Assembly: GCA_951406725.2 (NCBI GenBank)
Contig: OX597827.1
Span: forward strand, 59,706,001 to 59,770,000
DNA: 64,000 nucleotides
Direction of reading: 5' to 3'
Origin: Octopus vulgaris
Lineage: Eukaryota
Below, one piece after another: positions 43,997-44,335 of this stretch (position 1 is the stretch's first letter; each line of letters opens with the position of its first letter). The translations under genes were made by a program, and so were the position numbers. Under the pieces are notes generated by a model. That model was not told where the DNA came from. It searched no databases and was given only the letters and a program-made list of their open reading frames with translations.

Positions 43997-44335
43997 TTGT
44001 GTCTGTGTTTGTCTCCCACTATTACTTGACGGCCGGTGTTGGTGTGTTTGCGTCCCCGTGGTTTGGGGGTTCATCGAGGGAGACCGATGGATTAAATACG
44101 AGGCTTAGGAGAAAAAAATGAAAATAAAGTTAAGTACCGGGGTCGATTCAACAAAACATTCTATTTATGCAGAAAAAGCTTCCACAAAATTTTCGTCTAC
44201 CAAATTCACTCACGAGGCCTCGGTCTGCCCGAAGCTTTAGCAGAAGTAGACAATTACCCGAGGTACTCTGTACGGTGGGACTGAACCAGAAACCACGTGG
44301 TTTCTAAGCGAGCCTCTTCAGTGCAGAACCAAGCA
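43545..44335. mobile_element. Cluster of three old SINE B pieces (-,+,-)
   Basis: About 43545-43740 (-), 43820-44150 (+), 44185-44335 (-). Confidence 0.8.

Follow-up and report, generated by a model that had tools for sequence, protein, structure and literature searches.

An A-to-G tract in an octopus intronic SINE as a probable cDNA record of RNA hyper-edited by ADAR before germ-line retroposition

A-to-I RNA editing is usually seen as lasting for the lifetime of a single RNA, but the principle that ADAR edits can enter DNA through reverse transcription has precedents in retroviruses and in cultured cells. In avian retroviruses, the accessible text of PMC12925331 describes editing of double-stranded RNA that is recorded in DNA, with about half of the adenosines changed, and a 2024 bioRxiv study (PMC11702581), in the portion available, reports clustered editing-type changes in inverted repeats in 3 of 235 pseudogene insertions that human L1 produced in cell culture. 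A related phenomenon on the DNA side is that of the APOBEC "DNA-edited" LTR retrotransposons, which carry G-to-A changes and for which PMC4866542, as far as its accessible text goes, describes a screen with 19 invertebrates as negative control; a further account, likewise available in part, is given in PMC2873906. For octopus itself, the accessible part of PMC5625713 documents both the depletion of G upstream of ADAR sites and strong hyper-editing of RNA. In the literature covered, most subscription papers lying outside its scope, we found no account of SINEs that are fixed in a germ line and hyper-edited from A to G.

Here, we analyse a 64,000-nt stretch of octopus DNA (the window; C14:59,706,001-59,770,000, genome 2.8 Gb) in which a SINE copy carries a dense tract of A>G changes (Table 1). 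Our results support, with high probability, a model whereby this tract derives from the cDNA of a SINE RNA hyper-edited by ADAR before its germ-line retroposition. The SINEs sit in an intron of a host gene that we take to be slit-like, between its first coding exon and the next exon found. In order, the tract-bearing copy consists of a 5' half (43814-43946) with a 35-nt deletion, (GT)n, and a 3' half from 44001 that belongs to an older subfamily, and the final ~50 nt of the family tail are absent. Both mismatches between the two candidate target-site duplication copies are transitions, and paralogous contigs continue into a microsatellite at 44178; together with the arrangement of the flanking arms, this suggests that the copy inserted mid-way into another, older member of the family lying in inverted orientation. 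Around the copy Rfam returned no family of note, and no RNA data set is listed as carrying the stretch. The copy is probably neutral intron sequence and shows no sign of function. Upstream of the host signal peptide (62976-63744, minus strand), the frame remains open for ~250 codons and contains Thr/Asn/Ser/Pro repeats.

Table 1. Positions in the window of the edited SINE copy, its surroundings and the host gene exons.
Feature	Position	Strand	Basis or remark
A>G tract, 5'-G A spared 3/3	44031..44089	+	letters and subfamily consensus
SINE copy bearing the tract	43814..44163	+	comparison with the family; end points placed from flanking repeats
Left copy of likely target-site duplication	43805..43813	+	7/9 letters match 44164-44172; weak alone, supported by position at both ends
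Right copy of likely target-site duplication	44164..44172	+	near-repeat of 43805..43813
3' half and microsatellite of older inverted copy of same family	43545..43804	-	A>G excess not significant on either strand
5' half of older inverted copy	44173..44340	-	likely split off by insertion of the edited copy
First coding exon of slit-like LRR host gene	62773..62975	-	signal peptide and cysteine cap; start approximate
72-nt leucine-rich-repeat exon of host gene	1515..1586	-	best matches are LRR proteins generally; SLIT2 only at E 0.012

Measured against the consensus of 43 other copies of the older subfamily, 10 of the 14 adenosines in the 59 nt from 44031 to 44089 read G on the plus strand (44031, 44032, 44050, 44060, 44061, 44065, 44076, 44078, 44079 and 44089). 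Against the same consensus, four changes of other types remain in the tract, those at 44073-44074 being recent. The adenosines left unchanged are 44077 and three preceded by G, giving 0/3 changed after G versus 10/11 elsewhere in the tract (Fisher p = 0.011, with only three 5'-G sites). Across the whole half-copy T>C was found at 1 of 35 sites, and G>A at 1 of 25 non-CpG sites in the copy, which does not fit the sense-strand G-to-A pattern of APOBEC-type editing. The letters of the copy are as given in the initial annotation, and the sparing of adenosines after G described there is borne out. Its count of 11 of 15 adenosines changed alongside five other substitutions is correct relative to the young family consensus and gives way to 10/14 when the copy is compared with its own older subfamily. 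The G at 44036, which had been read as an edit, was rejected as such because it is, like T44039, a marker of the older subfamily (44 of the 162 B halves with a letter there have G); as 44036 was the sole changed adenosine following a G, dropping it makes the 5'-neighbour argument stronger. With only one of the eleven changes being such a marker, the concern that the Gs are diagnostic of a common subfamily is largely dispelled.

The family consists of two halves, 5' (169 nt) and 3' (194 nt), separated by a microsatellite, and its head carries what we take to be box-A- and box-B-like motifs followed by a CORE-like motif. In a 1.064 Mb sample we found 198 and 183 halves, which scales to ~500,000 copies in the genome, and an unedited 25-mer has 30,375 genome matches. 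In these head motifs and in its very high copy number, the family resembles the octopus tRNA-derived CORE-SINE OR2 named in the accessible part of PMC4758252, and it may correspond to OR1 or OR2. Family-wide, the mean rates of A>G and T>C are 0.045 and 0.044; an overall drift of the family from A to G was therefore rejected, and the equality of the means implies that edited copies form a rare tail.

This tail was reached with sequence motifs. Sense-strand motifs with three to five required A>G changes gave 2, 4, 8, 9 and 21 genome matches (44 in total, a few loci being matched twice) versus 0, 0, 0 and 3 (three in total) for mirror motifs with T>C changes; the best-matched pairs gave 9 versus 0 and 21 versus 3, and the three mirror matches have at most one T>C each beyond the motif. 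The possibility raised at the outset that A>G clusters are no commoner than clusters of other substitution types is at odds, for T>C, with the 44 to 3 matches. Outside the motifs, 17 of the copies found in this way changed A to G at 154 of 1,286 sites and T to C at 20 of 1,248, counts that include one 5'-half site that is a subfamily marker and that is masked in later counts. Their A>G rate varies with the preceding base, from 0.20 after T and 0.17 after A to 0.06 after C and 0.04 after G (9/250 after G versus 145/1,007 at other sites), against a flat background of 0.04-0.05. A further 18 loci obtained through the 5' half show A>G at 65 of 1,147 sites versus T>C at 18 of 1,160; here the effect of the neighbour is less pronounced (8/217 after G, 57/930 otherwise). 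From the pooled counts we dropped duplicate fetches of one place, L212, which has edits and other changes in common with L139, and L152, which is near-identical to L145.

In total, the targeted searches yielded 31 more copies of the kind seen in the window: at least eight A>G changes are present in the 3' half at 25 of the 34 loci examined, and at least ten in the 5' half at six further loci. The edited copies lie on at least two subfamily backgrounds and their patterns differ, from which we conclude that most of them are separate events; as a rough inference from the unbiased sample and the motif counts, edited copies make up 0.1-1% of the family. An editing bias for the 3' half was considered and rejected as an effect of the query, the 5'-half motif recovering copies whose edits lie mainly in the 5' half. 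In most edited copies the edits are restricted to a single half, 5' or 3' (L252-L271, L210-L239), the microsatellite seemingly bounding the duplex. Clear target-site duplications were recovered by a strict exact search at 4 of 34 edited copies, three of them AT-rich, and no partner LINE of the family was found among the loci examined. At one locus (L222:1685-3059), eight or more 5' halves are repeated in tandem upstream of a heavily edited 3' half with 20/51 A>G, and an old 5' half at L042:6852-7010 with 10/31 A>G is possibly an old edited copy.

The class extends to a small lineage. A motif with four A>G changes matched 12 loci, eleven of which, together with L236, have five 3'-half A>G changes in common, none of them after G, within unrelated flanks (L240-L251, L236); each of the five occurs in at most one of 24 parent-subfamily copies. 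These patterns make it likely that a single edited copy turned into an active source and founded a 12-member subfamily. Separately, the members of the pairs L139/L212 and L145/L152 have edits as well as other changes in common in different flanks and are possibly daughters of edited sources.

Two loci with a duplicate elsewhere in the genome allow an edited copy to be set against its source. L052 (C22:50.596 Mb) is an inverted SINE pair, both arms of which are changed on one physical strand. The spacer of this pair recurs on C2 (203.48 Mb) at 98% identity, where the source is unedited, has a full-length inverted arm and lies just upstream of an exon that matches alpha-catenin; this 38-residue exon was identified through solved structures and was missed by Pfam. 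The edits are on the sense strand of the alpha-catenin gene and are confined largely to the hairpin arms, with 65 of 138 adenosines changed in the arms versus 4 of 308 outside. Again sites after G are depleted (5/23 changed versus 59/114 others, p 0.011), and sites followed by G were changed at 22 of 28, a 3'-G preference that differs from the accessible text of PMC5625713, in which octopus is among the species with reduced 3'-G preference. The copy on C22 is 2.19 kb long; 5' truncation makes it begin within the first arm, it extends up to a (GAT)n repeat tail, and no target-site duplication was seen at the locus. L052 thus looks like a retrocopy of a hyper-edited intron hairpin, its ends pointing to an origin by reverse transcription, and it is the locus that bears most directly on the proposed route. 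A search with its T>C-rich arm found 29 other loci, the best with 7/42 T>C (L194) and the rest with at most 4, while the corresponding sense search, with a longer and more edited query that makes the two not strictly matched, found at least eight A>G at 18 of 29 loci. With only L194 reaching 7/42 among the 29 loci, lone antisense-edited copies were rejected as a class, L194:1395-1588 itself being a lone 3' half that is possibly antisense-edited.

The second locus, L133 (C6:12.14 Mb), duplicates 2.15 kb of another C2 locus (51.68 Mb) with 98.9% identity in its unique part, and both of its arms are edited. Its source locus is without the sense SINE (L133/L171 versus L172), which a simple retrocopy does not explain; L133 could stem from a polymorphic source haplotype or from write-back in place. 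Both L052:1136-1643 (C22 ~50.597 Mb) and its C2 source also contain a full U6 snRNA (Rfam RF00026, 96 bits) fused to a SINE 5' end, and this chimera lies within a short inverted-repeat element that bears an 8-bp duplication and that we take to be hAT-like.

In our model, ~60 nt of the SINE RNA would have formed a duplex, either with an inverted copy at the source locus or with antisense SINE RNA, within which ADAR would have converted A to inosine. Inosine is read as G by reverse transcriptase, and the reverse transcriptase of a LINE, reading the edited RNA in this way, would have copied it into germ-line DNA. Its entry as a single unit into the interior of the older inverted copy, in the intron of the slit-like gene, would predate the split of organisms A, B and D (see below); the near-repeats on either side and the interrupted older copy point to this step. 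The parts of the model that we infer are the enzyme (ADAR), the RNA partner of the window copy, the order of events and a LINE as the writer. An adenosine-deaminase domain (PF02137) is found above cut-off at four genome loci, a family that presumably also takes in ADAT1 and ADAD. Among the best 40 of 1,007 and the best 40 of 4,091 candidates, there was no source locus for the window copy.

Several other explanations deserve consideration. Chance transitions, or a minor subfamily descended from a rare unedited source, would gain from the one subfamily marker among the eleven changes first listed, from the frequency of G at 44050 (15%) and 44032 (12%) among old copies, and from the copy having been chosen as the most striking in 64 kb. 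In the unbiased sample, moreover, nine C>T changes within 60 nt occur in two half-copies and nine A>G in one old 5' half, so that clusters near the size of the tract are not peculiar to A>G, the base rate of C>T being 2.4x higher. Against this, the window copy is the strongest outlier among 381 half-copies and 12 substitution types (4,572 tests in 1.064 Mb; p = 5.6e-7, ~0.003 after correction), the next-best p is 1.8e-4 and none of the other 380 half-copies reaches p < 1e-4 for A>G. In simulations, at least ten A>G in any 60 nt arose at a frequency of ~5e-6 under the old-subfamily rate and of 2.6e-4 when the rate was 0.10. The best 40 matches include no copy that has these ten G, and neither chance nor a rare source accounts for the 5'-neighbour bias and the family-wide class; we regard this explanation as very improbable. 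Even less credible is an assembly artefact such as polishing with edited RNA reads, an idea suggested by the heavy hyper-editing of octopus RNA (PMC5625713, accessible part). All ten G are kept in contigs of X1 and X2 (both organism A), X5 (organism B) and X11 (organism D), which addresses the call for checks in genomic DNA and at the orthologous locus in relatives, the three organisms being up to ~4% apart. The DNA label of these runs is a guess (X4 and X11 have no such label), and the contig of X1, which spans 44000-44708 with one difference, may come from the source of the assembly. However, the contigs of X2, X5 and X11, from other studies and including two other organisms, cross the tract with its flanks and have zero differences at the ten sites; all 20 differences of X11 in 461 nt are listed and none falls on them. 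The artefact is thereby refuted for the window copy; L052 and L133 were read from the assembly. The cluster is older than the split of organisms A, B and D, and since insertion and edits are both present in every relative examined, the editing is not datable separately from the insertion. X4 is labelled as organism A yet has the same listed differences as X5 of organism B (44000-44708), and labels may not track species. The family G at 44073 is found in all four of these runs, indicating that the AT at 44073-44074 arose recently in the window copy.

Two further explanations accept that a deaminase acted but place its action at the resident locus. A plus-strand transcript of the resident SINE might have folded on its inverted neighbours and been edited, a cDNA patch then overwriting ~60 nt; a patch from another edited copy would look identical. 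The nesting of the copy in an inverted copy, which makes fold-back possible, the short and sharply bounded tract, three same-strand changes at 43679-43684 in the facing arm, and L133, with both arms edited and a source that is without one of them, are in line with such a conversion. However, the facing arm (43545-43736) has A>G at 4-5 of 41-42 sites on the same strand versus 4-5 of 52 on the opposite strand, at a background rate of 0.063; the three changes, noted at the outset as signs of an edited neighbour, are real, but neither arm of the older inverted copy has an A>G excess on either strand, and an edited neighbouring arm was rejected. The 5' half of the window copy likewise has 0/27 A>G with an inverted partner 240 nt away, the known transcript at the locus is from the minus strand, and conversion in place should hit sense and antisense SINEs equally, in contrast to the 44 to 3 observed. 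We consider it improbable, if less so than the other alternatives. The host gene being on the minus strand, editing of its pre-mRNA would read as T>C on the plus strand, and host pre-mRNA was rejected as the source, as the initial annotation had argued. That annotation left the choice between retroposition and cDNA-mediated conversion of edited RNA: the genomic Gs and the 44-to-3 bias uphold the edited-RNA origin, while conversion in place fits less well. Because editing of the adjacent inverted arm is unsupported, and because of the unedited 5' half and the strand that host editing would mark, editing before insertion is favoured. The gene orientation does predict the direction of the changes if ADAR deaminated the plus DNA strand in an R-loop with the minus-strand RNA of the host gene. 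ADAR activity on the DNA strand of DNA:RNA hybrids is known, and a published study reportedly concerns RNA editing by ADAR in such hybrids. R-loops, though, predict no bias for the SINE sense strand and do not account for edits confined to hairpin arms in L052 with an unedited source, and we view this route as a long shot. Reverse-transcriptase error and GC-biased conversion were rejected by reasoning, as they predict neither hairpin confinement, nor sparing of adenosines after G, nor strand bias.

Retroposition of a previously edited RNA is therefore our preferred reading of the window tract, and the wider class makes it tempting to speculate further. On balance, we lean towards the view that in this lineage ADAR has repeatedly mutated the germ line by way of retroposition, affecting roughly 0.1-1% of a SINE family of 500,000 copies as well as host intron RNAs, with edited copies able to become source genes. 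If so, RNA editing would directly create SINE subfamilies, and the edited copies would be dated fossils of RNA that was double-stranded in the germ line. The copies described here point to a route by which A-to-I editing yields inherited mutations in an animal whose RNA is very heavily edited. Genome sequence alone could then be used to probe the action of ADAR on germ-line retroelement RNA, past double-stranded RNAs, and the role of editing as a seed of subfamilies versus a means of disabling copies.

The octopus copies share features with each of the described systems. Like the edited avian retroviruses in the accessible account, they suggest ADAR-type editing that passed into DNA via reverse transcription with about half of the adenosines changed, but those viruses are exogenous and known as single isolates, and are not host-fixed non-LTR elements. 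The L1-made pseudogene insertions, as described in the available portion of that study, show edits of reverse-transcribed cellular RNA that are limited to inverted repeats, and L052 has the same anatomy; whereas those insertions are somatic and follow induced L1 expression, the octopus copies are germ-line, fixed and mostly lone SINEs, with one likely subfamily founder among them. Finally, the APOBEC-edited retrotransposons, in the parts of the accounts available, are likewise strand-biased, hypermutated, fixed copies found by comparison with a consensus or with sister copies, but there the changes are G to A, result from cytidine deamination of cDNA and occur in vertebrates, while in octopus they are A to G, lie in a SINE and follow the neighbour pattern of ADAR.
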